Positions 12,321 through 44,475 of a stretch of 64,000 nt of DNA are shown one piece after another. Source of the DNA: a bacterium (lineage in GTDB: Bacteria > Patescibacteriota > Patescibacteriia > JAHIZJ01); assembly GCA_030699685.1 (NCBI GenBank), contig JAUYLJ010000027.1, positions 12,601 to 76,600 of the forward strand, written 5' to 3'. The notes beneath the pieces are model-generated. The model saw only the letters and a list, made by a program, of their open reading frames with translations. It had not been told where the DNA came from and did not search any database. The number at the start of each line of letters is the position of its first letter. The stretch's first letter is position 1. Position numbers and translations under genes: made by a program.

Positions 12321-13331
12321 ATGAAATACATTAATGTTTTGGCCGGAAAATATTCAACAATGAAAATACGGATTTTCGAAATACGTACCCTCCTAGAATC
12401 CAAGTTGAAAAAACTCGGATTCACGGCCAGTGAGTCAAAAATCATCGCGGACGAATACATTCAAGGAGAGCTCAAAGGAAAATCTTCTCACGGGATTTTT
12501 ACGTTTATTCGCGTTTATGAAAAAATTAAACGCCGCCAGCGAGGCCGCTACAAAATCATAATCAACAAAGCCGCTTACGCTTATATTGAGGGCAATAAAG
12601 ATATTGGACAAATTGTGGCCGACAAGGCAATCCGCTTAGCGATCAGCAAAGCGAAGAAAAGAGGTGTAGCGATGGTCGGCGGTGGAAATATTCAGGCATT
12701 TCTCCGGCCAGCCACCTGGGCCGAGATCGCTGCCAGGGAAAACATGGTCGCGTTGTGTTTTAATTTTGGCGGCGGACCACTTATGGCTCCAACTGGCGCG
12801 CGGGAAGCTATCCTGTCCACCAATCCAATCGGAATTGGCATCCCATACAAGCCCTATCCTTTCGTTATTGACATGGCCACGTCCAATAGAGCTTTTTATA
12901 ACGTACGCCTGGCTCGGAAATTGAACACAACAATCCCTAAAGACTGGGGTATTGACCGATGGGGCAAGCCAACGGCTGACCCGAACAAACTCGTGGCCGT
13001 CTTGCCTTTTGGCGGATACAAAGGCTATGCCCTGGCTCTGGCTCTTGAAATATTGACCGGACCGCTCGTCAAAACCAGAGTGGGCCGACGATCTGATGCC
13101 ATGCGCGGCTTTCTTTTTATTGTTATCGATCCGAAAGTATTCACGACGCGGAAAGAGTTTGACCGTGACATTCGCGCTCTGATTCGAGATGTTAAAACCG
13201 CGAAGAAAATCAAAGGCGTAAAAAATATTCTTATTCCGGGTGAACGAGCGTTCCAAACCGAGCAAGAAAGATTAAAAAGCGGCTTTTTTGACCTGGACGA
13301 ACGCGTTATTAACGAGATTCGTGTATTATAG
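12321..13331 (+). CDS. Ldh_2 family malate/L-lactate/sulfolactate-type dehydrogenase
   Basis: N-terminus ...GELKGKSSHG and overall Ldh_2 architecture; start ATG at 12321 has GAGGGA RBS, chosen over ORF-track start because 12183-12312 overlaps the tRNA. Confidence 0.7.
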   Translation: MKYINVLAGKYSTMKIRIFEIRTLLESKLKKLGFTASESKIIADEYIQGELKGKSSHGIFTFIRVYEKIKRRQRGRYKIIINKAAYAYIEGNKDIGQIVADKAIRLAISKAKKRGVAMVGGGNIQAFLRPATWAEIAARENMVALCFNFGGGPLMAPTGAREAILSTNPIGIGIPYKPYPFVIDMATSNRAFYNVRLARKLNTTIPKDWGIDRWGKPTADPNKLVAVLPFGGYKGYALALALEILTGPLVKTRVGRRSDAMRGFLFIVIDPKVFTTRKEFDRDIRALIRDVKTAKKIKGVKNILIPGERAFQTEQERLKSGFFDLDERVINEIRVL

Positions 13332-32998: not shown

Positions 32999-33910
32999 GT
33001 GGCCGTCGGCACTTCTGATCCTCGTTATGGCGGTGAACTGATTGGCGCGAATATCAGTCTGAGTGAAGGCGACTACTTCCCCCAAGACACGAACGAACAT
33101 GTGGCGATTCTTGGAAAGAGTCTGGCTGAAAAAAACAGCCTTGGTGTCGGATCGAGTTTTACCGCCTTTACAGTCAGCATCACGGTCAGCGGTATTTATG
33201 ACGCCGGCAACGATTTCGCGAATAACTCAGTTATCTTCCCCATCCAAACTTTGCAACAACTTTCCTCGCAAGATGGACAAGTCACCTCAGCACTTGTCAG
33301 AGTAGATTCAGCTGATAACCTCGCTGCCGCCAGCGCCGCAATCAGCGCTCAGTTAGGCGATAGAGCGGATGTCATCTCTTCAGAAGACACGATCGCTCAG
33401 GTGATTGAACCACTTGAGAATATTCAAACTATTACAACAACGAGCCTTATTGGCGCGCTGCTGGCGGCAACTATTATCACCCTGCTGACCATGATCATGA
33501 TCGTACGCGAACGACGGAAAGAAATCGCCGTCCTCAAGGCAATTGGCGCGAGTGATCCGAGTATTGCCGGCCAATTTATGAGTGAGGCGGTGATGTTGAC
33601 TTTGCTTGGTGGAGTACTTGGTTCAGTGCTGGGCTTCATTTTCAGTAATCCTATACTTTCCTCACTGCTGCGTTCATCCAGCAGTGAATCGCAACTCGGT
33701 GCTGGACCAGCCAGAGGCGGGATCGTCCAATTCGCGGTGGGCGGTTTCAGAACACTTGGAAATAGCGTTCAAGATCTTCGAGCGGTGGTTGATTTCCAAC
33801 TCATCGCCTACGGCTTTCTTGCGGCCATTCTGATCGCGATTATCGGATCGGCATTTCCGACTTGGCTTATTGGTAGAGTTCGTCCGGCTGAAGTATTACG
33901 TGGAGAATAA
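32999..33910 (+). CDS. FtsX-like ABC transporter permease (MacB/LolE type), apparently lacking N-terminal TM1
   Basis: periplasmic domain followed by 3 C-terminal TM helices; GTG start is the first in-frame start after the TGA at 32846. Confidence 0.6.
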   Translation: MAVGTSDPRYGGELIGANISLSEGDYFPQDTNEHVAILGKSLAEKNSLGVGSSFTAFTVSITVSGIYDAGNDFANNSVIFPIQTLQQLSSQDGQVTSALVRVDSADNLAAASAAISAQLGDRADVISSEDTIAQVIEPLENIQTITTTSLIGALLAATIITLLTMIMIVRERRKEIAVLKAIGASDPSIAGQFMSEAVMLTLLGGVLGSVLGFIFSNPILSSLLRSSSSESQLGAGPARGGIVQFAVGGFRTLGNSVQDLRAVVDFQLIAYGFLAAILIAIIGSAFPTWLIGRVRPAEVLRGE

Positions 33911-33912
33911 GC

Positions 33913-34587
33913 ATGTTAACCGTACAAAAACTATCCAAAACATTCAGCAGCGGAAATAGCTCTGTCCACGCGGTCCATGATGTCAATTTCAACCTGGGAT
34001 CAGGCAAACTCGCTGCTATCATTGGGAAGAGCGGCAGTGGCAAAAGTACGCTTCTCGCCCTCCTTGGGACGCTTGATGAGGCTGACACGGGCAGCATTCA
34101 AGTAGAAAAAGATGATGTGACGCGCTTTAGTGAACAGGAGCTGCTTCGCTACCGCCGCTCGACGATTGGTTTCATCTTCCAAAGCTATAACCTGATCCCA
34201 AACTTATCCGCACTCGAGAATGTAATGCTGCCAATGGAATTTAACGGCCTGGCCGGTGAGAAACGAAAAAAACGCGCTATTCGTCTTTTAACACAAGTCG
34301 GTCTCACTGAAGATAAGATACAACGCCGCCCCGGCAAGCTCTCGGGTGGCGAGCAACAACGAGTGGCCATTGCTCGGGCTTTAGCCAATACGCCCAAGCT
34401 TATCTTAGCAGACGAGCCAACAGGGAATTTAGATACCCAAACGGCTAAAACGATTATTCACTTGCTGCACAATCTCGCCAAGACTGAACACGCCACTATT
34501 ATTATAGCGACTCATGACGCCGAGGCGGCACAACATGCTGATCAGGTGTTTCGCCTGCGAGACGGACGTTTAGCGCAAATTCGCTAG
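33913..34587 (+). CDS. ABC transporter ATP-binding protein (MacB/LolD-like)
   Basis: Walker [12 protein letters not shown], signature [15 protein letters not shown], Walker [12 protein letters not shown]. Confidence 0.85.
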
Positions 34588-34633
34588 CCACCTCATCAAG
34601 ATTTGTCTCAAATGAGGGTTGCCATGGAACAAA

Positions 34634-35206
34634 TTATTTTTCTTCGCTTCTACTCAAAGACGAGCGCTGCCGATTCCAGCCCAGAGCCCGCCGGTAGACA
34701 AATTCCGCCACCGCGAAACCAGCTGGCACAACAATCATGTTGCCAATCAAGTTTAGTTTGAGGAAGGGCAGCCCAAGATAATACGAGTACAACAAACCGC
34801 CCAGATTCTTTTCATAAAACGGGGTAATAAGCCAGACTCCGAAGTTAGTATACAGATAAAAGAATATGGAAAAGGCCATCCCCGCCCCAAAAGCGGCAAG
34901 AACAATTTTATTGTTCAAGCGCAATTTCCGCAAAAGCAATCCGGCCGAAGCTCCGAGAAGGAAAGCCGACCAAGTAAAAAGAAAGATGTTGGTATTGCCA
35001 ATAATCATATCAGATCCGAACATGATACCGAGAGGCACCAGCACAGCCCAGAAGCCGCCCAAATACGCTCCCGCCAGCAAAGAAAGCAGCGTGACAAACT
35101 CAACGTTGGGAGCAATATCAAAAACGGTTCGGCTTATGATGCCAAAGCCAACCAGAAAAAGTGCAATAATGAAACGCGGAGAAATAACTTGTTTCAGTGT
35201 CCGCAT
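34634..35206 (-). CDS. ECF-transporter S-component-like membrane protein
   Basis: 190 aa, about 6 TM helices, size and topology of ECF substrate-capture components. Confidence 0.4.
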   Translation of the reverse strand: MRTLKQVISPRFIIALFLVGFGIISRTVFDIAPNVEFVTLLSLLAGAYLGGFWAVLVPLGIMFGSDMIIGNTNIFLFTWSAFLLGASAGLLLRKLRLNNKIVLAAFGAGMAFSIFFYLYTNFGVWLITPFYEKNLGGLLYSYYLGLPFLKLNLIGNMIVVPAGFAVAEFVYRRALGWNRQRSSLSRSEEK

Positions 35207-35209
35207 AGT

Positions 35210-35662
35210 CTAGTTGTCCAGTTTCTCAAAAACAAACTCGATTCTATCGCCGGACCGCACAGTATATTGCCCCACTCCCACAGCGGCCTGTTCACCGTTG
35301 ACGTAAAAAATCCAGTATCCATCGGCTGTCCCATTGGCCAACGAACCTATCTTTTCGACTAACACGCCAAAGTCATACTCTTTCGTTTCCAATACAACTC
35401 CGGAATCCGTGGCCGCCAGCCGCAGCGCGTCCAGCGCCGTCAGGCTCTCTTCAGGGCGGAATGTATACGAAAGTTCTTCTCCACCCGTCACTCTCACCGA
35501 AACGGTATCTCGCAACGTAACCGCTCCGGCAACGCTCGATTGGGTACGATTCTGAAGCGAGGCGATATATTGTTTAGTGGCCGAAGAATACGAGGTAATC
35601 AGGATTGTGGCAAGAGCCCCAAACACGACGGCAATGAATAATATGACTGAATTGCGCTTCAT
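35210..35662 (-). CDS. DUF4430-like (transcobalamin beta-domain-like) membrane-anchored protein
   Basis: N-terminal TM plus about 110-aa domain; paralog of 35799-36236. Confidence 0.5.
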   Translation of the reverse strand: MKRNSVILFIAVVFGALATILITSYSSATKQYIASLQNRTQSSVAGAVTLRDTVSVRVTGGEELSYTFRPEESLTALDALRLAATDSGVVLETKEYDFGVLVEKIGSLANGTADGYWIFYVNGEQAAVGVGQYTVRSGDRIEFVFEKLDN

Positions 35663-35798
35663 AATTGACCCAAATCAATGATAATGGCTGGCTGTAAACG
35701 CGGCCAAGCGTCTGCAATTGGCCGATACTCTGCCGCACCCCAATAGTACTGGGCGACATACTCCTTGTCAATCTGTCGGCGAGAGAAAAATACCAGCG

Positions 35799-36236
35799 TT
35801 ATTCGTAACGATACTCTATAATATCGCCTTCATGTACCGTCAAAATATCCGGACTGGCGAGGCTCGTCTCCGAATTGACGTAGATCGACCATTCGCCCGT
35901 GCCGGCTTCGGTCACCCAGTTGCCGATTCGACGCAAAAGTACTTTCCCGGAAGCGTCCTCTTCGACGACATAGTCTATTCCCGCCACGCCCGTCGCCACA
36001 TCCAACGCTTCGAGGACGGTGCTCGCGTCATCGATCTCGAAATTCTGCCGAAGCAGCGTATTTCCTCCGACGGTCATCACTACGGTAGCGACCCGTATTT
36101 CAATGCCCGCCACCTCAGGACGCTGGATGGATTGCATTTCAAAATTCTTCTCAGGAGCGGCACCAAAAACAATCACAACAGCCGCTCCAATAGCGAGAAG
36201 GGTAACGCCTCCAAGTTTCCAAGAAGAACGCGGCAT
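35799..36236 (-). CDS. DUF4430-like protein, paralog
   Basis: same architecture and conserved TVL.AL....G....Y.G positions as 35210-35662. Confidence 0.5.
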   Translation of the reverse strand: MPRSSWKLGGVTLLAIGAAVVIVFGAAPEKNFEMQSIQRPEVAGIEIRVATVVMTVGGNTLLRQNFEIDDASTVLEALDVATGVAGIDYVVEEDASGKVLLRRIGNWVTEAGTGEWSIYVNSETSLASPDILTVHEGDIIEYRYE

Positions 36237-36238
36237 AT

Positions 36239-36577
36239 TTAGCGTGAAAAATGAATCTTGCGAATGTGAATCAGGAAGTATTCCAAAACGATTCTGATCA
36301 GGACAATACCGCCAAGAGAAATGAGTTTTTCGGAACTGGGAATCACCACGGTCAAAATAATATCACCGGCTAGAAAAAAATCCAGTCCGATGACTAGCGA
36401 ACGCATGATGTTGTCGAGAAACTTATTGAAATGCGTCGTCCGCTTCAGCATCGAGTGATAGACCATCAGTATCAGGTCGTACACTCCCCGCGCCACGCCG
36501 ACTACAATCACAATTACGCCAATAAAGGAGATGTATGGATTGACGGCTTCGACTATTGTGACGAGTAATTCTTGCAT
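36239..36577 (-). CDS. small polytopic membrane protein, hypothetical
   Basis: 112 aa, 3 TM. Confidence 0.4.
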   Translation of the reverse strand: MQELLVTIVEAVNPYISFIGVIVIVVGVARGVYDLILMVYHSMLKRTTHFNKFLDNIMRSLVIGLDFFLAGDIILTVVIPSSEKLISLGGIVLIRIVLEYFLIHIRKIHFSR

Positions 36578-36607
36578 AGACCTTTTTCAATAAGACGCTG
36601 TTGTAGT

Positions 36608-37354
36608 CTAAACCCGATCAAGCAATTGGTCAATTATTTCCCGGAAAGTTTCGAGCGGAATTACGCCGGGAACGATCGAGCCGTTGATAAAGAAAGTGGG
36701 AGTTCCAGCTACACCAGCTTCCAGCCCGGCCTGAAAATCCTCCAACACTTCATCTCGATGACGTCCCGAGTCAAGGCAGGTATTGAACTGCTGGACATTG
36801 AGACCGGCTTGCTGAGCATATGTTTTCAAATTGCTCGACTCCAAGGCGTTCTGGTTCTGGAAAATCCTGTCATGGAGTTCCCAAAACTTATCCTGCTCGT
36901 GAGCGCACTCTCCCGCCTCCGCCGCGATTTGCGCTTCGGGATGAACGCTCGTGACTGGAAAATCACGATAGACATAATGAATGTCTGAACCGTACTCCAG
37001 CATGATAGTCCGGACAATACCCGAAGCCTGCCGGCAGAAAGGACATTGGAAGTCTGAAAATTCCACGATTTGCACTTTAGCGTCGGCCGTTCCGGCACTG
37101 GGGTCGTCGCTCGTGACGAGAGTGTTCAAGGCTGAGGTAGCGGGGACGCTTGGAATGGAAGAATTAGGCGAGTCAGTCGAATACGCCAGATCCCGAAAAC
37201 TGCCAATCACTTCATACGCAAACCAAATCACCGTACCTAAAAATATGATTATCGCTCCGATAAATGATACACCCCACCAGGTGGCAAACCAGCGTTTCCG
37301 GGTTGATGGAGAAGTTTTTGATTTATTTATTTTTTTTGCCGCGCTCAAAGACAC
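36608..37354 (-). CDS. DsbA-family thiol:disulfide oxidoreductase, membrane anchored
   Basis: CPFC active site (FSDFQCPFCRQ), N-terminal TM. Confidence 0.75.
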   Translation of the reverse strand: MSLSAAKKINKSKTSPSTRKRWFATWWGVSFIGAIIIFLGTVIWFAYEVIGSFRDLAYSTDSPNSSIPSVPATSALNTLVTSDDPSAGTADAKVQIVEFSDFQCPFCRQASGIVRTIMLEYGSDIHYVYRDFPVTSVHPEAQIAAEAGECAHEQDKFWELHDRIFQNQNALESSNLKTYAQQAGLNVQQFNTCLDSGRHRDEVLEDFQAGLEAGVAGTPTFFINGSIVPGVIPLETFREIIDQLLDRV

Positions 37355-37360
37355 TCCTTT

Positions 37361-38041
37361 CTATACGCAATTATACGCCGGGTCATCATTAGTATTGTAG
37401 CACAGACAGAATGGAGGGTCGCCCCCACGCAGTTCATAATAGAGCGGGTGAGTGCCCATGTCATTTTCCGCCACCTCAGGAGTGGCTTCAATCCGGCAAT
37501 GCATCAAATAACTCTGTACGTTACCATTCGCAAATTCCGTTGGATCAACGACGTAGCGGCAGTTATGCGGAGAGTCGTAATTTTCAAATTCTCCCAGAGG
37601 GTCGAAGAAAACTCCACCGTGCAAATATTCGGGCGATAAGTATCCCTCAAGAAATCCGTATGAGTTGGAATTTTCGTATCGCAAATCGCCACTGAGATAG
37701 ATAATTCCTCCGCAACTCCCGTCCGGCTGGATATGCGCGTATCGGAAGTCCCAGCGTCTATCGCCCCACTCGCCCTCCGCGGCATCTCCTGGATATTTTT
37801 CGTTATTGTAATAATAGAGCTCGATTGCGGTCCGGTAAGAATCGAAGGTGCCCACACGGTAGGCGTCCCTGGCTCTGGCGCGCGTATTGCCCAAAGTGAT
37901 CAGCGCCAAAGTGGAAAGCAGGCTGATAATCGAAATCACCACCAGCAACTCAATCAGGGTAAATCCTTTGACCGGGGTGAATGATTGGTAAATGTTTTTT
38001 TGTGGCACGCGATTAGTCACTCCTATGGCCTCGGCATACAA
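37361..38041 (-). CDS. type IV pilin/pseudopilin-like protein
   Basis: class III signal KGFTLIELLVVISIISLLSTLALITLG; C-terminal Cys pair. Confidence 0.7.
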   Translation of the reverse strand: MYAEAIGVTNRVPQKNIYQSFTPVKGFTLIELLVVISIISLLSTLALITLGNTRARARDAYRVGTFDSYRTAIELYYYNNEKYPGDAAEGEWGDRRWDFRYAHIQPDGSCGGIIYLSGDLRYENSNSYGFLEGYLSPEYLHGGVFFDPLGEFENYDSPHNCRYVVDPTEFANGNVQSYLMHCRIEATPEVAENDMGTHPLYYELRGGDPPFCLCYNTNDDPAYNCV

Positions 38042-38721
38042 TCATACATCGAGTCGTCATTTGTATTGTAACAAAGGCAAAAAGGCGGATCTCCGCCAGT
38101 CAGTTCATAATAGAGGGGATGCCTCCCCATGTCGTTTTCCGCTAATTCGAAAGATTCTTCGAGCCGACAATGCATCAAGTACTTCTGAACGTTTCCTTCA
38201 TCATACCCCACTCCATTGTTTTCTCGATCGGGATCCTGACCTACATATTCCTCCACTACATAGCGGCAGTTATGAGGCGTATCCAAGCCGGGAATCATCA
38301 AAGGGTCTTCAAACACACCCCCACGTATATAATCAGGTGAAAGGTAGACTTCGAGAAAACCGTGAGAGGTGCTGTTTTCGTATCGAAGGTCGGGGCCATA
38401 AAATTCGGGAGAGCCGCAGGATCCATCTGCTTGGGGAGTGCCGTAGTGGAATTCTCCACGATCTCTTCCGAATGGCCCAATAGACTGATCACCCGGGTAT
38501 CTTCCATTGTCATAATAGTACGTCTCGATAGCCGACCGGTATGCGTCAAAGCTTGCTACTCGGTAAGCGTCTCGAGCTCTGGCGCGCGTATCTCCGAGAG
38601 TAATCAAAGCCAAAGTGGAAAGCAGGCTGATGATCGAAATGACTACTAGCAACTCAATCAGGGTAAAACCTGGAATACGTTTTGAGAGCCAAGATAGTTT
38701 CGATTTCCCCCTCGACATCAT
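38023..38721 (-). CDS. type IV pilin/pseudopilin-like protein, paralog
   Basis: IPGFTLIELLVVISIISLLSTLALITLG; C-terminal GGDPPFCLCYNTNDD shared with neighbour; start taken at MMSRGKSK. Confidence 0.7.
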   Translation of the reverse strand: MMSRGKSKLSWLSKRIPGFTLIELLVVISIISLLSTLALITLGDTRARARDAYRVASFDAYRSAIETYYYDNGRYPGDQSIGPFGRDRGEFHYGTPQADGSCGSPEFYGPDLRYENSTSHGFLEVYLSPDYIRGGVFEDPLMIPGLDTPHNCRYVVEEYVGQDPDRENNGVGYDEGNVQKYLMHCRLEESFELAENDMGRHPLYYELTGGDPPFCLCYNTNDDSMYDCMPRP

Positions 38722-39092
38722 ATAGACAGTATACTCCAGATAAAAAAATAAAAACACCCAGCAATAGGGTGTTTTTAATACCAACTTTTCTGGCCGGTCG
38801 AGGTAATGAGATAATGCCTCGCGAACGCGGGGTCAGCTGCAGTACATGATGCGCTTTGAGGAGACCCCGCCAAGGCGGGGAAAAAACGATCAGATCATAC
38901 AGCTGAATTCAAACCTCGAACCGGCCGGAAAAAATGGTTTCCGAAATCTTCTTCCAAGCACTTCATCGTACCGATGCAGCTCTTGGGAAAAGGTCCGAAT
39001 CCGCGCGTCCCACCAGTCGTTACCAGGGAACCGCGGATTCGGATTGTCGGCGAGATCATCGATACAAGGATCGAATTACCCGCCAGACGCCA

Positions 39093-39209
39093 TCACTTAC
39101 TCCACCTTCTTTCGTTCCGCCTGGAGATGAGCCAGGCGGCCAGAACGATGAGAGCGAGTGGCGCCCCGAAGAGCACCGCCGGGTGCAGGGAAGAAATCAA
39201 CTCACTCAT
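39093..39209 (-). CDS. 38-aa single-TM peptide with basic C-terminal tail (not in ORF track)
   Basis: MSELISSLHPAVLFGAPLALIVLAAWLISRRNERRWSK; RBS GGGAGGTAGAAC directly upstream. Confidence 0.45.
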   Translation of the reverse strand: MSELISSLHPAVLFGAPLALIVLAAWLISRRNERRWSK

Positions 39210-39212
39210 GTT

Positions 39213-39302
39213 CTACCTCCCATCTTGCATCAGCCGGTACCGTTTCCACCCGCCATAGCCGGTGAAATCGAAGAACACGATCTGTACGGCCAGCTGGGCC
39301 AT
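39213..39302 (-). CDS. 29-aa peptide (not in ORF track)
   Basis: MAQLAVQIVFFDFTGYGGWKRYRLMQDGR; RBS GGAGGTGA; stop overlaps the RBS of the next tiny ORF. Confidence 0.4.
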   Translation of the reverse strand: MAQLAVQIVFFDFTGYGGWKRYRLMQDGR

Positions 39303-39339
39303 CAGTCACCTCCTGTTCTCAACTGGATCCCGTAACTGC

Positions 39340-39750
39340 CTAAAAGTCCGACACGGACTCGCGGGTTCCTTCATCATCGTAGCTCATCCCCAATGTACGA
39401 ACCTCGCTTGGAGACAGAAGGGAATACACAACATAGCCTGCAGTCACGTGCTGGAAAGTTTCCAGCAGTGAAAACACCCGTCGTCCGTGGCGTCGCATCA
39501 TTTCCGCGTGGTGCGAACAAAGGACCGCCACATCACCATCAAGCTCATCCCGGCTGATGTTGTACATCTCGCTCGCCGGAGCGAGATGCTTGCAACCGCG
39601 AATAGCACACTGGAATTGAGTGATAGTGTTCGGACCGCAAGCGGCCCGGATGCTGCACAACTTCCAGCCGATTGTACCCTCCGGAATCAATTTGATTCCA
39701 TTGGGTTTGAGAACAAACACGAGCTTGGTCACTACCCGGAGCACAAACAT
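39340..39750 (-). CDS. hypothetical Cys-rich protein (136 aa)
   Basis: RBS AAGGAGA 7 nt before internal ATG; multiple Cys/His suggest metal binding. Confidence 0.5.
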   Translation of the reverse strand: MFVLRVVTKLVFVLKPNGIKLIPEGTIGWKLCSIRAACGPNTITQFQCAIRGCKHLAPASEMYNISRDELDGDVAVLCSHHAEMMRRHGRRVFSLLETFQHVTAGYVVYSLLSPSEVRTLGMSYDDEGTRESVSDF

Positions 39751-39926
39751 AGCTGATCTCCTTCCCACTGGGAAGACTGAAGCAAAATCAATCGAATGAA
39801 CTCCTGCTCAATCCATCACCTTGTACGGCGGTGAATTCGGGAGGAGGCCTGTCACGATCTCTTGACTGCCCTGAGGGGCAGGGTATAGTGAAGCACACGG
39901 TAGGAAGTGTCAATGAAGGAAAAAGA

Positions 39927-40247
39927 ATGTCCAAACTTCTCAAAAAGGAATACAAGGGGGTAAGTAATGACCGGTTGGCGCGCATGATCGCGCGGGGCTT
40001 TGTTGACGTGGATAAAAGGTTTGATGAAGTACATGCGGAATTGGCCACCAAAGCCTCGAAAGAGGATGTGCACGGAGTGGAAACTCGGCTGGACAGGGTC
40101 GAAACACGACTAACCGGAGTGGAAACTCGGCTGGATGGAGTAGAAACTCACATCAACGGCCTTGAATTCAAGGTAGACCGAGCGCTCTACTCCGAATACA
40201 CTCATCTAGAACGACGAGTCAGTCGGCTCGAAAAAAAGGCGGGCTAA
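39927..40247 (+). CDS. hypothetical protein with four tandem 7-aa (21-bp) VETRLDx repeats
   Basis: RBS GAAGGAAAAAG before ATG 39927; coiled-coil-like. Confidence 0.45.
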   Translation: MSKLLKKEYKGVSNDRLARMIARGFVDVDKRFDEVHAELATKASKEDVHGVETRLDRVETRLTGVETRLDGVETHINGLEFKVDRALYSEYTHLERRVSRLEKKAG

Positions 40248-40466
40248 TCTAAATATTCAACGCTGGGTATTACTGTGACATTGCGGTCATGAATTTTGTA
40301 TTTCTCTCCAGAATATTCATGCAATAAATACTCTGGAGAGCCCCGAACCATACGATAGTCCGGGGAAGGTGGAAAGCGGCAGGAACGCTTCCCGGAGGAA
40401 ATAGCGAGGAACTTTTTCAGCCTGCCGACCCGATCACCTGACCGAGCCGCTGAAAAAGGGAGGGGG

Positions 40467-40634
40467 TTACCGCTCAACCCTATAGAACCTGTGGCCGCTC
40501 CACGCCATCAGCGCGAGACCGCCCAGGATACCAAAAAGGCAAGCGCAGGCCGTCAATGGCCCGATCGGCCTGGTCAGCGTGACCAGCGACCCGAGAGTCG
40601 CCAGCTCACCCAGGACCAACAAAATGATGGACAT
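40467..40634 (-). CDS. 55-aa two-TM membrane peptide
   Basis: RBS TAAGGAGGGCACC before ATG. Confidence 0.5.
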   Translation of the reverse strand: MSIILLVLGELATLGSLVTLTRPIGPLTACACLFGILGGLALMAWSGHRFYRVER

Positions 40635-40654
40635 GGTGCCCTCCTTACCTGACG

Positions 40655-40870
40655 TTATCGGGTCGGCCGAAGCCTCCCGTTGCCGTAGGTGGTGAAGAAC
40701 CCGATACACACACCTACAAACGCCAGAATCCAGCCAAGTCTGCTGATGACCAACAGCTCCGGCTGGGGTTGACCTGCCACTCCCGTCACAATGACGGCAA
40801 TGACGGTCAGCGCCGAGAATCCCGCATAGGATTTGAACAAGAAGCCCAGAAACTCATTGACCCAACACAT
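40655..40870 (-). CDS. 71-aa two-TM membrane peptide
   Basis: RBS AAGGAGG 8 nt before ATG. Confidence 0.55.
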   Translation of the reverse strand: MCWVNEFLGFLFKSYAGFSALTVIAVIVTGVAGQPQPELLVISRLGWILAFVGVCIGFFTTYGNGRLRPTR

Positions 40871-40921
40871 CTTGTATGCCTCCTTACTAACTTCACCAGC
40901 ACCTGCCGAAAGAGTATTACA

Positions 40922-41125
40922 TCAATGACCCGACGCCTCAAGAAGCCGGACCACTTCATCCCAGTTGATCAGAGCAACCACGCCCCCGACCAACCCATAT
41001 GCCCACCAAAGTTTTGTGAAAACCGTGACGGGTGCTGCCCAATGGGCGCACACCATCACAGTCAGTACCATCAGCCCGCTAAACCAAAGGGCTGATTTGA
41101 AAACCCAACCGATAACCATCTTCAT
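40922..41125 (-). CDS. 67-aa two-TM membrane peptide
   Basis: RBS GAGGAGGAG before ATG 41125. Confidence 0.5.
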   Translation of the reverse strand: MKMVIGWVFKSALWFSGLMVLTVMVCAHWAAPVTVFTKLWWAYGLVGGVVALINWDEVVRLLEASGH

Positions 41126-41453
41126 GTCTCCTCCTCGTGAGGGTAAAACAAAATCTTCCAGCGGGGTAAGAAACCACATCCCAACCTCGAGATTCGAAGT
41201 TCGGACGCTTCCAAAGTCGTTCATCGCCGTATCGATGCAGTACTTTGGAAGTACCCGGCCAGAGTCGCGTGGTGCGAAACTGGCCGGGGCGGAACACTGT
41301 CAGCGTACACTCGGCGTTCCGCCAAGACGACGCTGGTGTTCCTCGTGAGTGACGCACGAACAGGTGCCCGTGCGACACTCTTCAGCATACGCAGCCTGGA
41401 GAGCGGCCACTAACGCGATCAATTGTTCCTTGTCCACTTCTCGCTCCTTTCTA

Positions 41454-41891
41454 TCACGCTTGCTGTCGGAGGCGCGAGCGGAGGCGTCGGAGCTGAGGTA
41501 CAACCAATAGGTCGTGCTCCAACTCTCGACATCGCCAGCGCGCTTCGGCGCGAAGGCGATCCGCCTCGCGCCGCTCTGACTCCTGGCGCTCCCACTCGAT
41601 CCGCTCCTGCTCTCGCAGAAGCCAAGCCTCGAGGAAGCGCTTGAGCGTGTCCGTCAGACGGAAAGCCCTCTCCGGCCTATGGTCGGAGCAGTAGGGGTAA
41701 AGATCACCCCCGGTCTGCCCGATGTGCGGGCAGAACACACGCCGCGCCACACAGACCTTCCCGCACTGGTAGCAGGCGAAGCTACCAGCGTTGGCATCGC
41801 TCAGGAGTCCACGCACCTCGGCCTCTTTGAAGGCCTTCGGTACGAAAAATCCTCCCTCGGACAAAACCATGATCGAGATAGAGAACAACAT
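41454..41891 (-). CDS. hypothetical Cys-cluster protein with Arg/Glu-rich C-terminal helix
   Basis: RBS AAGGAGG 5 nt before ATG; CYQCGKVC...FCPH...YCSDH. Confidence 0.5.
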   Translation of the reverse strand: MLFSISIMVLSEGGFFVPKAFKEAEVRGLLSDANAGSFACYQCGKVCVARRVFCPHIGQTGGDLYPYCSDHRPERAFRLTDTLKRFLEAWLLREQERIEWERQESERREADRLRAEARWRCRELEHDLLVVPQLRRLRSRLRQQA

Positions 41892-42390
41892 GCGTTCCTC
41901 CTTACTGACTTTTCCGGCGTCAGCTGCCGTTGTAGAGAAACCATTTTCTCTCCGCAGCCCTCATCACAAATAATGGTAGTGAAAAGCTTTGGAAGAAAGG
42001 GCGAGGAGGAGGGACCACGTCATTTGCAGCGGGCGCGATTGAGCCGATCGCCGAAGCTGCATGCGTTGGATATACACCCTCACTCCTCGCGTCGTTGTTT
42101 GCGTCCCGATATCTCGATCCGGACGCTCCTAAAATCGTTCTCCGACACAGACTTATTCGACAAGAATCAAGCGAGCTGCAAAATAATAACTTTATGAGAA
42201 CGACTTAAGGAGAATAAATTGTCAACGTTCATGCCGTAAGTGAATCCTCTTTTCAGCGCTCCTCCCAGAATACCGGGGAAACGCTGAAAAGGGAATTCGA
42301 ATCACGCGATGACTCGTCGTCAGCCGCGTCGATCTGGAGGTGAGAATGAACACAGTTATGACCCGGCTATGCCGAATGCTCCGTGTTCTA

Positions 42391-42645
42391 CCAGTTTCTT
42401 ATGAAAATCTTCAGTTCGCACCGAAGACAATCATCTCCGCTGGTTTCCTCCGCCTCCAAGTCGACGCGGATGACTAAGCAAAAGTTCTTAGATAAGGACA
42501 GTGATCTGGAGGAGAGATGGTGGAATCAGTTTGTTCCTTCCGAAGAAGAAAGCTCTGACTCCCACCAGTTTCTTATGAAAGTCTTCAGTTCGCACCGAAG
42601 ACAATCATCTCCACTGGTTTCCTCCGCCTCCAAGTCAGTGTCCTT
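42391..42645. repeat. two 72-bp direct repeats (3 mismatches) spaced 183 bp apart
   Basis: 42391-42462 and 42574-42645. Confidence 0.7.
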
Positions 42646-43212
42646 GCCCTCGGGTTTGGGGCGACCGGATTCGGTCCAATATATGTTCGTGACCGCCGGT
42701 CATACCGCCCCAAATTCGGGGACAAGCATTGCTGATGAGATTTCTCGACAGTGATCTCTCGACTTCGCTCGAGATTGATTTCCTCGCTCTGCGAGGAAAT
42801 CAAAAAGGTGGTGGCTCGCTATCGTGTTTTCCGTGGAGAAAAAAACACCGTAGCAAACCACCACCTTCATAGGATTGGTGTTTGGAATCGGCGGCCTTTC
42901 TCCTCAGAAAGCCGTTGCGTTGTAATGTGCCTCCGTTTGAAAACTTCCAGCGTAACCGCGCATGATAGCGCACCTGGCAAAACTTGTCAAGACCTCTCTG
43001 GAGTAGTTTCGCTAATATTAGGCAAGATAAATTACTTTTGAGAACTTAAAAAAACGACTACAAAAGGCCAAAATCTAGACCGTGTATCATTCAATATTAA
43101 TGTCGTGATCAGCGCCAGCCGTTTTTCCCTGCGGGCTTGAAGGCTCTGGCTACACACAACAATCCAGCTTTCTCCTCTATACTACCGTTCTGGTTTCCGA
43201 TACAATACACGC

Positions 43213-43644
43213 ATGCCGCCATCAAATAAAAATTTCCACGTCGGATTGAAAGCGATTATTCGTCGTAATTCTGAATTTCTGGGTGTCAAAAACACCCGCA
43301 ACCGCTACTGGACCCTGCCCGGCGGCCGGATCGAGGAACGCGACCTGGATTTGCCGGTAATCGAATGTCTACGCCGGGAGTTGCTCGAGGAGCTTGGTTT
43401 ACGAGCGAAAATTGAAATAGGTAAGGTATTTGACATGATTAAATACAAGACCTCTCCTGACGACCATTCGCCGAATCAAAAAATATTTCTGATATGCTAT
43501 GATTGTCAGTTCGACGGGGGTGAAATTGTGCTCAAAAAAGACGAGCTGGAACAATTTGAATGGCTCGATAAAGAAAACTACAAGCAATATGATTTCGGCG
43601 TACTGCAGAAAACAATTGATCGCTTCGTCGCGGAAAAACTCTAA
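43213..43644 (+). CDS. NUDIX hydrolase
   Basis: GGRIEERDLDLPVIECLRRELLEELGL Nudix box. Confidence 0.8.
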   Translation: MPPSNKNFHVGLKAIIRRNSEFLGVKNTRNRYWTLPGGRIEERDLDLPVIECLRRELLEELGLRAKIEIGKVFDMIKYKTSPDDHSPNQKIFLICYDCQFDGGEIVLKKDELEQFEWLDKENYKQYDFGVLQKTIDRFVAEKL

Positions 43645-43685
43645 CGCTTGCGTATTGTGAAAATAAGAGGCAGTATGAAAAACGT

Positions 43686-43720
43686 GCCGGGGTGGTGGAA
43701 TGGTAGACACAAGGGACTTA
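43686..43720 (+). pseudogene. tRNA-Leu(TAA) 5' part (acceptor, D-arm, anticodon stem through CTTA) with no 3' part
   Basis: identical to 43804-43838 of the intact copy. Confidence 0.7.
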
Positions 43721-43770
43721 CCCCGAACTACGATGAGTTCGGGGTACCCGGTACCCAACGCGGTTCCGGG
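43721..43770 (+). repeat. 50-nt GC-rich double-hairpin element, copy 1
   Basis: CCCCGAAC-TACGATGA-GTTCGGGG plus CCCGGTAC-CCAACGCG-GTTCCGGG. Confidence 0.8.
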
Positions 43771-43803
43771 TAAAATCCTTCAGCACATCACAACAAAAAG
43801 AAT

Positions 43804-43889
43804 GCCGGGGTGGTGGAATGGTAGACACAAGGGACTTAAAATCCCTCGACCACAAGGTCGTGCGAGTTCGAATCTCGCCCCCGGCACCA
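43804..43889 (+). tRNA. tRNA-Leu(TAA), intact, with CCA
   Basis: acceptor GCCGGGG/CCCCGGC, anticodon loop CTTAAAA, long variable arm, T-loop TTCGAAT. Confidence 0.85.
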
Positions 43890-43914
43890 ACAATGACAGC
43901 AGGGAGAGTATGGA

Positions 43915-44196
43915 GTGTGTATGTACTATGTGTATGTGCTTCGGGGCGTAACACAAGATCGTTACTACATCGGTCGTACCGAGAATCTTCAAAAGAGAAT
44001 CTCGCAACACAAAAAAGGGGAGGTTTGGACAAGCCGTCGACTTGGTGTTTGGCAATTAATGTTTTATGAAGCGTTTCTTGCCAAAGCCGATGCCATTCGC
44101 CGAGAGCGATACCTGAAAACAAGCAAAGGAAGATCTACACTGAATCTCATGCTTAGAGAAAGCTTGCGTCTCGTGGCTTACCCCGAACTACGATGA
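43915..44196 (+). CDS. small GIY-YIG nuclease family protein (YhbQ/UPF0213-like)
   Basis: YYVYVLRG...[20 protein letters not shown]...RRERYLK; stop codon lies inside hairpin copy 2. Confidence 0.7.
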
Positions 44197-44230
44197 GTTC
44201 GGGGTACCCGGTACCCAACGCGGTACCGGG
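44181..44230 (+). repeat. 50-nt GC-rich double-hairpin element, copy 2 (1 mismatch vs copy 1)
   Basis: preceded by CTTA, followed by TAAAATCC, as for copy 1. Confidence 0.8.
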
Positions 44231-44283
44231 TAAAATCCCTCGACCACAAGGTCGTGCGAGTTCGAATCTCGCCCCCGGCACCA
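44231..44283 (+). pseudogene. tRNA-Leu(TAA) 3' part (53 nt, identical to 43837-43889) with no 5' part
   Basis: seen in sequence. Confidence 0.7.
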
Positions 44284-44475
44284 AAACCTCACTACCGTGA
44301 GAATCCTTATTTTGATCGCAAAAACGTTTCGATGTCTTCCGCCGGGTACCACTAATATATTACCCTGGGCTTGACCGGCAACAAAACAAAATGAACAACA
44401 CCGGACAAAGACCCGTTTTTAGCGCCGCCTAAAAAAGACTGACGAAAAAGATCGGCAGGGTATCTGGCGTTAAAC

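Follow-up and report, generated by a model that had tools for sequence, protein, structure and literature searches.

The DNA analyzed here (the window) is a 64,000-nt stretch of a genome of the Patescibacteria, or Candidate Phyla Radiation (CPR), taken from positions 12,601 to 76,600 of contig JAUYLJ010000027.1 in assembly GCA_030699685.1. At 38742-43022 it contains an island of small, GC-rich genes preceded by a long non-coding leader. The island is read as this genome's version of a clade-conserved, hypervariable locus for cell-envelope proteins that is gated by a novel RNA leader, and the probability of this reading is put at roughly 0.55. The locus has a defined architecture that is conserved in related genomes, its leader has RNA structure evident from covariation, and its genes contrast with the core genes in composition and in the use of Shine-Dalgarno (SD) sequences. 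The unit extends from a promoter and candidate operator at ~43022 to a terminator at its left end. A first-pass annotation, made from the letters alone, had placed the region at 38785-42800; the region is real, and its true bounds are ~43022 and the terminator at 38742-38777.

Conserved slot in related genomes

Relatives were reached via homologues of the neighboring cyclic nucleotide (cNMP)/GAF and NUDIX genes. The closest loci were in Patescibacteria metagenome-assembled genomes (MAGs). Eight further distinct genomes were obtained (L003, L004, L005, L033, L034, L035, L036, and L038; L039 is a duplicate of L038), and these eight and the window are referred to as the nine genomes. One flank was common to all of them and held the genes for trigger factor, a FolC-like ligase, riboflavin synthesis, uracil-DNA glycosylase (UDG), the cNMP/GAF protein, tRNA-Leu, usually a SpoU-type methylase, and the NUDIX hydrolase. 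The other flank carried the genes for DsbA, DUF1622, and Fe-S proteins wherever the contig extended there (L004, L005, L034, L036). The window has the same flanks, all of housekeeping genes, with two pilin genes between the island and DsbA.

In every genome, a gene-free stretch of ~1 kb was found on the NUDIX side, followed by an array toward DsbA. The arrays were 3-10 kb long, consisted mostly of co-oriented genes without a Pfam domain, and varied in gene content. Some array proteins were common to certain relatives (L004_222/L036_208, 81% identity; L035_192/L038_196, 46%; L004_315/L036_276, 28%). No array protein of the relatives resembled the window ORFs, and no matches were obtained when all island proteins were compared with 30 related loci by tblastn. 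The check for presence or absence in related genomes, which had been proposed with the first-pass annotation, thus found the slot everywhere and the island as such in none of the relatives. Many of the relatives' array proteins had signal peptides, transmembrane (TM) segments, or coiled coils, some were pilin-like with an N_methyl motif, and secreted, TM/coiled-coil, and beta-rich types were also among the slot proteins.

L004 and L036 are a close pair. At L004 13120-13980, the non-coding flanks were 80-87% identical to those of L036, the first array gene was only 28% identical as protein, and the next array gene was 81% identical. Cassette-like indels, in which whole genes had been gained or lost, were also seen between the two. 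The pattern suggests diversifying selection or allele swapping via the conserved flanks, and for the first gene it points to extreme gene-specific divergence or allele replacement.

As a separate observation, several array proteins of L033, L035, L036, L038, and L004 had a signal peptide and an aromatic end after beta-rich sequence (...KLDY, ...KLNF, ...SFSYSF). Such ends resemble the termini of outer-membrane beta-barrels, which is odd for bacteria that are thought to have no outer membrane.

Composition and translation signals

The GC content of 38785-42800 was 0.540, compared with 0.497 for the whole window. This was the highest value among all 4-kb stretches (4-kb windows outside the island: mean 0.496, sd 0.014, maximum 0.530). 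A step in GC content followed the pilin gene directly (0.47 at 38500-38999, 0.54 at 38750-39249), with a maximum of 0.636 at 41250-41749. Both the GC-rich region of ~4 kb and the abrupt switch after the pilin genes had been noted from the letters alone, and the windowed GC values bear them out. The gain was modest (~4 points) and was found mainly in third codon positions (GC3).

SD-led starts were counted as GGAGG with a start codon 4-10 nt on and an ORF of at least 25 aa. Eighteen occurrences were found in the 64 kb, corresponding to ~13 distinct sites, and six of these sites were island genes (39093, 39213, 40467, 40655, 40922, and 41454). GGAGG/CCTCC occurred 5.9 times per kb in the island and 1.8 times per kb overall. 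The enrichment of near-consensus ribosome-binding sites that had been described for the island is therefore real.

The same contrast was present in the relatives. The GC content of the array exceeded that of its own flanks by 2-9 points in 9/9 genomes, whatever the GC content of the host (for example, 0.48 vs 0.41 in L005 and 0.59 vs 0.51 in L036). In the three relatives checked, GC3 was 0.72-0.77 in array genes vs 0.54-0.59 in core genes, and an SD core preceded 21/30 array genes vs 6/36 core genes. The difference from the core in composition and translation signals, first described for the window, thus extends to the arrays of its relatives. Since the GC offset and the SD usage recur across the clade, they speak against a single acquisition event from a donor with one fixed composition. 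The unusual composition belongs to the locus, where it is maintained vertically and scales with host GC. Candidate sources of the raised GC3 are recombination-associated GC bias (biased gene conversion), selection for expression, and exchange with a clade-wide or other gene pool.

Horizontal acquisition, which the first-pass annotation had favored, is not supported in the sense of a one-off insert: an equivalent GC-elevated array lies in the same slot of all genomes examined, behind the same promoter and RNA leader. Closeness to the tRNA-Leu locus had been cited in its support. The NUDIX gene lies between the two, the island does not abut the tRNA, and no tRNA fragments or integrase gene flank the island.

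Promoter and RNA leader

The island is headed by a predicted sigma-70-type promoter, TTGACA-17-TATCAT (42962-42990, minus strand), directed away from the NUDIX gene into the island. It agrees with the consensus at 11/12 positions and is the best match in the region. About 20 nt upstream of the -35 box lies the palindrome CCTAATATTAGCG (43010-43022, minus strand), a candidate operator that a protein presumably binds. A palindrome around TAATATTA was found in the same place in all nine genomes, in 1-3 copies. In an alignment of four genomes, A1, the TTGACA and TGCGCTAT blocks did not vary, and the other five leaders also showed a matching promoter. A non-coding leader of ~0.85-1.1 kb followed the promoter in every genome. 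By blastn, parts of 42100-43050 were 73-79% identical to relatives whose proteins were only ~67% identical.

The leader starts with domain D1 (42801-42955, minus strand; minimum free energy [MFE] z-score -6.0), in which a purine box is followed by a terminator-like hairpin and a U tract. The box generally reads GAGGAGAGAG, and in the window GAGGAGAAAG (42895-42905). The hairpin (42801-42868) has 22 bp and a pyrimidine-rich apical loop, is followed by at least 4 U in all nine genomes, and carries compensatory changes at 13/25 pairs. The purine box could pair over 8-12 nt with the apical loop in all nine genomes, and with the upper stem as well, although such homopurine-homopyrimidine complementarity is easily obtained. 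The A-rich box of the window matches its own U-rich loop.

Element E2 (42640-42725, minus strand; MFE z-score -3.8) was found in seven genomes. It forms a long hairpin around a conserved core, GGUCAC..GGACCG, and has compensatory changes at 12/25 pairs. It is followed by two copies of a larger module, M, described below, and by hairpin P6 (42246-42293, minus strand), which corresponds to inverted repeat I4 and is 78% identical to L005 12852-12902. Element E3 (42103-42230, minus strand) is 79% identical to L003 and was found in seven genomes. In it, a nearly invariant single-stranded stretch, GAACGUUGACAAUUU, precedes a covarying stem with compensatory changes at 7/13 pairs, after which come GGAGCGUCC and a small hairpin. 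The spacing between E3 and the first SD-led gene downstream is short and roughly constant, and a partial second copy of E3 is located at 41177-41251, ahead of p67. The first-pass annotation had described this part of the island as a non-coding zone with direct repeats. The zone is indeed non-coding and repeated; it is in fact a structured RNA, and as such both the most highly conserved and the best-supported functional element of the region.

No Rfam 15 match was found for the leader by cmscan, either at E<=10 on 41800-43300 or at E<=1 on the leaders of L033 and L038, apart from chance hairpins of the miRNA type. Resemblances in sequence to RNase P, tmRNA, group II intron, yybP, hammerhead, and similar RNAs were dropped, as the corresponding Rfam models gave no match. 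Two further candidates were rejected. The conserved block 42150-42240 had been considered as a small ORF (MNVDNLFSLSRSH...), but its frame is lost in L004 and the block forms a covarying stem. The TTGACA within E3 had been considered as a second promoter, but no -10 box is present at a suitable distance in any genome. Between E3 and p145, there is also a 39-aa ORF with a GTG start (41964-42083, minus strand; GAGGAG 5 nt upstream), which may be a leader peptide or a chance ORF.

For a wider promoter scan, the pattern TTGACA-N12-TGCGCTATNNTG-N4-GTTA was searched against metagenomes, and 27 loci were obtained (L006-L032). These mostly lie ahead of unrelated sequences and do not look like true homologues of the leader. 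The scan suggests that the pattern is a strong general promoter type of the CPR in which a TGCGC is conserved directly ahead of the -10 box. In L016, L019/L027, L024, L028, and L032, small genes with SD sites and high GC3 came after long gene-free leaders; repeated GAGGAGAGAG boxes were also present in L016 and L019/L027. The occurrence of CPR loci with such long leaders and SD-led genes hints at a wider phenomenon.

Module M

Direct repeats of 72 bp had been reported in the leader. Repeats are present, with a length of 89 nt at 91% identity instead (42374-42462 and 42548-42636, spacing 174 nt), and they are parts of two copies of a multi-helix module of ~130-150 nt, M. A covariance model, R1, was based on four copies from L003, L004, and L005, with no window sequences among them; its E-values are rough. 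R1 recovered both window copies, namely copy A (42496-42643, minus strand; match 42504-42636, E=5.5e-8) and copy B (42324-42469, minus strand; match 42332-42462, E=2.7e-9), as well as a second copy in L005 and 1-3 copies in each of L033-L038. The MFE z-scores of copies A and B were -6.05 and -8.26, respectively.

In the alignment of 16 copies, 94.2% of the cells were in standard pairs vs 37-43% when the partners were slid by 1-3 columns; because the alignment had been fitted to the model, the pairing counts are somewhat too high, but the margin is large. Compensatory changes were found at 22/35 pairs. The covariation score was 0.544 vs 0.04-0.09 in the slid controls, and the observed values were reached in 0/500 shuffles. 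Single-sequence MFE folds of the window copies, which are independent of R1, gave the same helices.

M is closed by a long stem made up of P0 and an invariant GGAGG/CCUCC P1. Inside it are a purine-rich joiner (GGAGAAGAGA), helices P2 and P3 (CUGA/UCAG), hairpin P4 with the loop GGGYUNNNACU, and an arm, P5/P5a, that encloses GAGC-UUCG-GCUC and an AAA bulge. Where a genome has more than one copy, these differ from each other by compensatory changes in P0, P2, and P5. Within the 64 kb, M was found only at this locus, and dispersed near-identical copies of the kind formed by miniature inverted-repeat transposable elements (MITEs) or repetitive extragenic palindromes (REPs) were not seen. In L005, L033, and L038, an SD-led gene is located between M copies, so that M goes with gene starts and is not a single leader domain.

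Another repeat, E4, was observed in some relatives, where it recurs after many array genes. It is a hairpin of ~50 nt, CACCCGAGCGKUUCAGUGC...UGCUCAGGUGAG, often located behind a variable hairpin and ahead of an AT-rich AATTCAAAATTAAGAATTC motif. E4 was found in L038 (at least 6 copies, e.g., at ~9167, 8543, 7476, and 6124), L035, L034, and L033, and was not recognizable in the window.

An independent assembly of the same sample (Logan SRR13727534; L001 and L002) covers 40607-42437 and 33001-39937 of the window. It stops exactly at the repeat of module M (42437) and near the coiled-coil repeat (39937-40607). Across these break points, contiguity is supported by the MAG assembly and by synteny with the relatives.

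Function of the leader and of the slot

In the preferred reading, the strong conserved promoter with its upstream TAATATTA palindrome would fire away from the NUDIX gene. It would transcribe the structured leader (D1, E2, one to three M copies, P6, and E3) and then the lineage-specific, GC3-rich, SD-led genes, and the unit would end at the strong terminator. The leader would serve as a cis-acting gate, with attenuation and read-through at the D1 hairpin admitting RNA polymerase to the array. Alternatively, M and E3, which lie a short distance before SD-led genes, might gate by RNA processing, stabilization, or control of translation. In either case, the gate would set the expression of a variable set of cell-envelope proteins, and the conserved non-coding elements could provide the flanking homology that lets the slot genes be swapped or diverge fast. 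The gene products are probably envelope-associated, given the membrane peptides of the window, the secreted and pilin-like proteins of the relatives, and the DsbA gene next door. The small proteins of the window would thus probably be envelope-associated accessory factors and not a toxin or lysis module.

Several points weigh against this reading. The promoter, the transcript ends, and the read-through at D1 are predictions, and the regulation of the downstream genes by the leader is inferred, with an independent RNA as the alternative. The envelope assignment comes solely from hydrophobic segments and the gene content of relatives. The sample is nine genomes, some of which are close kin of each other, and the pairing counts of M are somewhat raised by the fitting mentioned above. 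The gene on the opposite strand and the internal hairpins also mean that the island is not one simple operon.

A bolder proposal is that the slot is an undescribed gene-cassette expression system. The leader and the inter-gene modules (M, with E4 in relatives) would regulate the read-through, processing, or translation of a constantly changing set of surface and membrane proteins, the elements may also be the sites of gene exchange, and M would be a new functional RNA class, such as a riboswitch, a ribozyme, or a protein-binding platform. This is put forward as a tentative possibility.

The leader might instead be a stand-alone, trans-acting RNA, either a small RNA of ~150-200 nt ending at D1 or an ornate RNA of ~1 kb similar to GOLLD or ROOL, with the genes merely downstream in a recombination-prone spot. 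Like GOLLD and ROOL, for which such surroundings have been reported, the leader has a tRNA gene and variable genes nearby. As in GOLLD, ROOL, and OLE, a multi-domain covarying structure extends over several hundred nucleotides, and its elements are strongly structured. The hairpin and U tract at the end of D1 look canonical in all nine genomes, and the order and sequences of D1-E2-M-E3 are far better conserved than any downstream gene. However, the M copies between array genes in L005, L033, and L038 and the constant short distance from E3 to the first SD-led gene fit cis action better. The Rfam models of GOLLD, ROOL, OLE, HEARO, and raiA gave no match to the leader even at E<=10. The RNA also differs from these classes in being modular, with M and E2 varying in copy number and order and M occurring between genes, and in having an internal terminator-like hairpin. 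An independent RNA is accordingly considered unlikely.

The array could also be an integron-like cassette array, in which a site-specific or structure-specific recombination system would insert and excise genes as units, with M and E3 (and E4 in relatives) as the recombination sites, read as DNA. Like integron arrays, it has one strong promoter at its end, behind which lie co-oriented, mostly promoterless small orphan genes without Pfam domains. Folded elements are repeated between some of the genes (E4 at least six times in L038, and M in several relatives), and the cassette-like indels of L004 and L036 are gene-sized. However, in each of the nine genomes the gene divergent from the array encodes a NUDIX hydrolase and not IntI, and the called genes within ~10 kb included no tyrosine or serine recombinase domain in any locus. 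No attI or attC was seen, and the 16-174-nt gaps of the 41454-40467 genes contained no palindromes with the attC-type R''/L''...L'/R' organization, as judged without a dedicated attC model. There is no repeat between most of the closely packed window genes. M has internal helices with compensatory changes and conserved unpaired bases, which are typical of a functional RNA under selection and needless for a recombination hairpin. This explanation is rather improbable. Diversity-generating retroelements, retrons, and bridge RNAs were dropped as candidates, since no reverse transcriptase or recombinase gene is nearby.

Searches for phage, toxin, and mobile elements

Another possibility is a recently acquired, foreign, membrane-active module, i.e., a phage holin/lysis cassette, a toxin of the Hok/Fst type, or a peptide toxin with its immunity protein. 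The higher GC content, the foreign-looking SD usage, the near-orphan ORFs, and the several peptides of 38-71 aa with one or two TM segments would agree with this, as would the sub-threshold XhlA match and the PHROG match of cc106. However, the equivalent arrays of the relatives show the same offset and SD usage, scaled to host GC, and the adjoining leader is vertically conserved. The matches of cc106 cover the coiled coil alone.

No integrase, transposase, toxin, or defense domain was found in the island with Pfam, PHROGs, PADLOC, or NCBIfam, in agreement with the first-pass annotation. A phage lysis/holin module, which it had suggested, gained no support: no endolysin was detected, holin and endolysin families gave no significant Pfam or PHROG match (best, Phage_holin_3_6, E=0.52), and apart from a coiled-coil match of cc106 to phrog_12015, a family annotated as of unknown function, no significant PHROG match was obtained. 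The DNA of 38785-43200 had no similarity to phage and plasmid collections, and viral contigs scanned with the operator and promoter pattern gave no match.

The suggested Hok/Fst-like toxin fared no better, as no known family and no evidence of an antisense RNA were found; the Rfam matches in the window were tRNAs only, with no antisense RNA family. The peptide in question, p38, does resemble those of Hok/Sok and Fst in its length of 38 aa, single TM segment, and basic tail, and a tiny adjacent or overlapping ORF precedes it. It differs in having no antisense RNA, fold-back elements, or Rfam/Pfam family, and it ends a three-gene operon in a larger array.

A tRNA-integrated island was not indicated either. 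Repeated fragments of tRNA-Leu are found on either side of the GIY-YIG gene alone (43678-44284) and do not flank the island, and neither an integrase gene nor an att duplication was present at the island. The foreign lysis or toxin module is the least supported of the rivals and is judged very improbable. A further suggestion, that the island might be something unclassified, agrees with the outcome, since it fits no classified system.

Genes of the island

The ORFs listed by the first-pass annotation all exist. The island ORFs look coding and are near-orphans, and the credible genes are mostly on the minus strand. Every SD-led ORF has an SD-to-start-codon spacing of 4-8 nt and the coding pattern GC3 > GC1 > GC2 (GC3 0.59-0.80, GC2 low). 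The long, overlapping plus-strand ORFs at 38934-39335, 40965-41348, 41679-42197, and 42383-42754 are without the GC3 signature and are spurious, as had been suspected. Domain searches and the near-orphan status of the proteins also agree with the earlier statement that no recognizable enzymes are present.

The first gene after the leader is p145 (41454-41891, minus strand; SD AAGGAGG, GC3 0.74), which encodes a small protein with a Cys cluster followed by a long Arg/Glu-rich helix. Among 5.8 billion proteins, p145 matched only itself, and its AlphaFold2 (AF2) model was confident only for the C-terminal helix at 81-144. It is followed by p45 (41300-41437, minus strand; SD-like AAAGGAGCGAGAAGTG, GC3 0.59), a possible 45-aa Cys-containing peptide with a GTG start and the weakest of the gene calls, and then by three small membrane peptides. 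These are p67 (40922-41125, minus strand; SD GGAGG, GC3 0.60), for which no homologues were found, p71 (40655-40870, minus strand; SD TAAGGAGG, GC3 0.69), and p55 (40467-40634, minus strand; SD TAAGGAGG, GC3 0.79), the last gene of the first minus-strand operon. All three had been described as two-TM peptides. By hydropathy, this is correct for p55 and p71, while p67 has one or two TM segments. The initiation region GTYAG(G)TAAGGAGG is shared by p145, p71, and p55. Hairpins follow p55 at 40412-40480, with a terminator-like site at 40464-40480.

On the plus strand, cc106 (39927-40247) encodes a small coiled-coil protein and has its own predicted promoter (39862-39889, 10/12 positions). Tandem Repeats Finder (TRF) located a 21-bp repeat of 3.3 copies at 40080-40149 in this gene, as expected from the earlier description of a 106-aa protein built from 21-bp repeats. 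With 168 homologues, cc106 belongs to a widespread family of DUF7310/DUF2730-type heptad-repeat coiled coils found across unrelated bacteria. Its sub-threshold XhlA match and its PHROG match (phrog_12015) cover the coiled coil only, and the TM segment of XhlA is missing.

The second minus-strand operon begins with p136 (39340-39750; SD GGAAGGAG), which encodes a small Cys/His protein. In a HMMER search of 1.84 billion representatives, three small relatives were found (P0015, P0017, and P0018; E=5e-8 to 6e-4). The family domain has ~55 residues with the pattern F-x-C-x(4)-C ... G-x-(L/V) ... C-x-(R/H)-(H/D) ... (F/Y)-x-L. P0015 is encoded on a short contig (L041), and the protein encoded next to it is homologous to a TM protein of the L004 array, which places P0015 in the same kind of array. 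Three large repeat proteins that also matched p136 (P0014, P0016, and P0019) look like artifacts of Cys-rich repeats and not relatives. The AF2 model of p136 was moderately confident in the core domain. It had no significant match in the PDB with Foldseek, and the PDB sequence-profile search was empty; p136 and p145 alike had no Pfam, PDB-sequence, or fold match. Residues 17-90 of p145 aligned weakly to the profile of the p136 family (hhalign probability 61%, E=8e-5), and p136 and p145 may be distant paralogues.

The operon continues with the adjacent genes p29 and p38 (39093-39302, minus strand), both with GGAGG 6 nt from ATG, and the SD of p38 lies inside the end of p29. GC3 is 0.80 in p29 and 0.74 in p38. 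Hydropathy gave one TM segment with a basic tail in p38, in accordance with the first reading of this peptide. No family matches were found for p29 and p38 in Pfam, PHROGs, NCBIfam, or PADLOC. The island is closed by a strong intrinsic terminator just before the pilin gene (38742-38777, minus strand; an 11-bp stem, then T7).

From these signals, three transcription units are likely. The first would run from the promoter at 42990 through the leader and p145-p45-p67-p71-p55 to the hairpins at 40480-40412. The second would be cc106 alone, on the plus strand, from the promoter at 39862-39889. The third would consist of p136-p29-p38 and end at the terminator at 38777-38742.

It is very improbable that most of the tiny ORFs are not genes and merely reflect chance purine boxes and ORFs in non-coding or decaying GC-rich DNA: although GGAGG-type boxes are also structural in the RNA leader, so that GGAGG alone is no proof of a ribosome-binding site, spurious ORFs abound on both strands, and no homologues were found for p29, p45, and the TM peptides, the SD-led ORFs have a codon-position signature that the overlapping alternatives do not have, regular SD-to-ATG spacing, a tightly packed, operon-like layout with coupling of p29 and p38, real homologues in the case of p136 and cc106, and a common initiation region in three genes.

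Neighboring loci

The two adjacent pilin genes are paralogous and share blocks of 75-78% DNA identity. For the 253-aa pilin ORF (38023-38784), the start listed is a TTG that overlaps the island terminator, and the real start is probably an ATG near 38724 (MMSRGKSK...).

Beyond the NUDIX gene, the tRNA-Leu locus (43678-44284) is layered. A copy of the 5' half of the tRNA (43678-43720) is followed by a 65-nt two-hairpin element (43717-43781), the intact tRNA-Leu(taa) (43804-43889), and a gene for a 93-aa GIY-YIG protein (43915-44196; Pfam E=7e-15). The 65-nt element then recurs at 44177-44241, and the copy of the 3' half (44231-44284) is identical to the 3' half of the intact gene. The arrangement resembles a GIY-YIG cassette with a tRNA-Leu of its own, lodged inside a second copy of tRNA-Leu. 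The tRNA-Leu is plain in L003-L005, and a GIY-YIG gene is also present there in L038 and L039. The SpoU-type methylase gene follows NUDIX in 8/9 of the relatives' loci (not in L003). It is missing in the window (43645-44475), where the rearranged tRNA-Leu/GIY-YIG segment takes its place.

Comparison with known systems

Close parallels are the flexible islands for cell-surface functions in streamlined, free-living bacteria, such as the hypervariable region (HVR) of SAR11 and the islands of Prochlorococcus, which also occupy a fixed slot between housekeeping genes near a tRNA gene and have variable envelope or secreted content. In the present slot, by contrast, a conserved promoter and ~1 kb of structured RNA stand at the head, the genes are mostly co-oriented, GC3-rich, and SD-led relative to the core, and no surface-modification genes of the glycosyltransferase type are included. 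The vsa, vsp, and vpma loci of Mycoplasma are likewise clusters of variable surface-protein genes in a minimal genome with conserved 5' non-coding sequence ahead. They invert via a recombinase, have genes in both orientations, and encode repetitive lipoproteins, whereas no recombinase, inversion layout, or lipobox proteins were found here.

As to the leader, covarying conserved helices in a long 5' leader and an early terminator-like hairpin with a U tract are shared with riboswitch and attenuator leaders and with antitermination RNAs (tandem riboswitches, EAR of the Bacillus eps operon, put of HK022), in which modules can also be in tandem and a long multigene unit may be downstream. The present leader differs from these in having no Rfam match and no expression platform beside M, and the genes behind it share no function from which a ligand could be guessed.

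Islands of hypervariable surface-protein genes are a known kind of feature, as are structured leaders, and their combination appears to be undescribed; literature searches yielded no description of a variable slot with an RNA leader, and no match was found in Rfam. The result is a fast-evolving, conserved chromosomal slot with its own style of codons and translation signals, fronted by ~1 kb of folded RNA outside Rfam. Several new covariation-supported RNA motifs come with it, of which module M is the clearest. The locus also corrects the easy inference that high GC content and a nearby tRNA gene make a foreign island.

The genomes of Patescibacteria are tiny and the cells live attached to other microbes, and it is believed that host range and survival depend on the surface and membrane proteins of these bacteria. 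The slot provides a concrete locus for asking how they vary and regulate their envelope proteins. If it is a gene-cassette expression system, the similar purine-box leaders behind the same promoter type in other CPR lineages would make it a widespread feature of these episymbionts.

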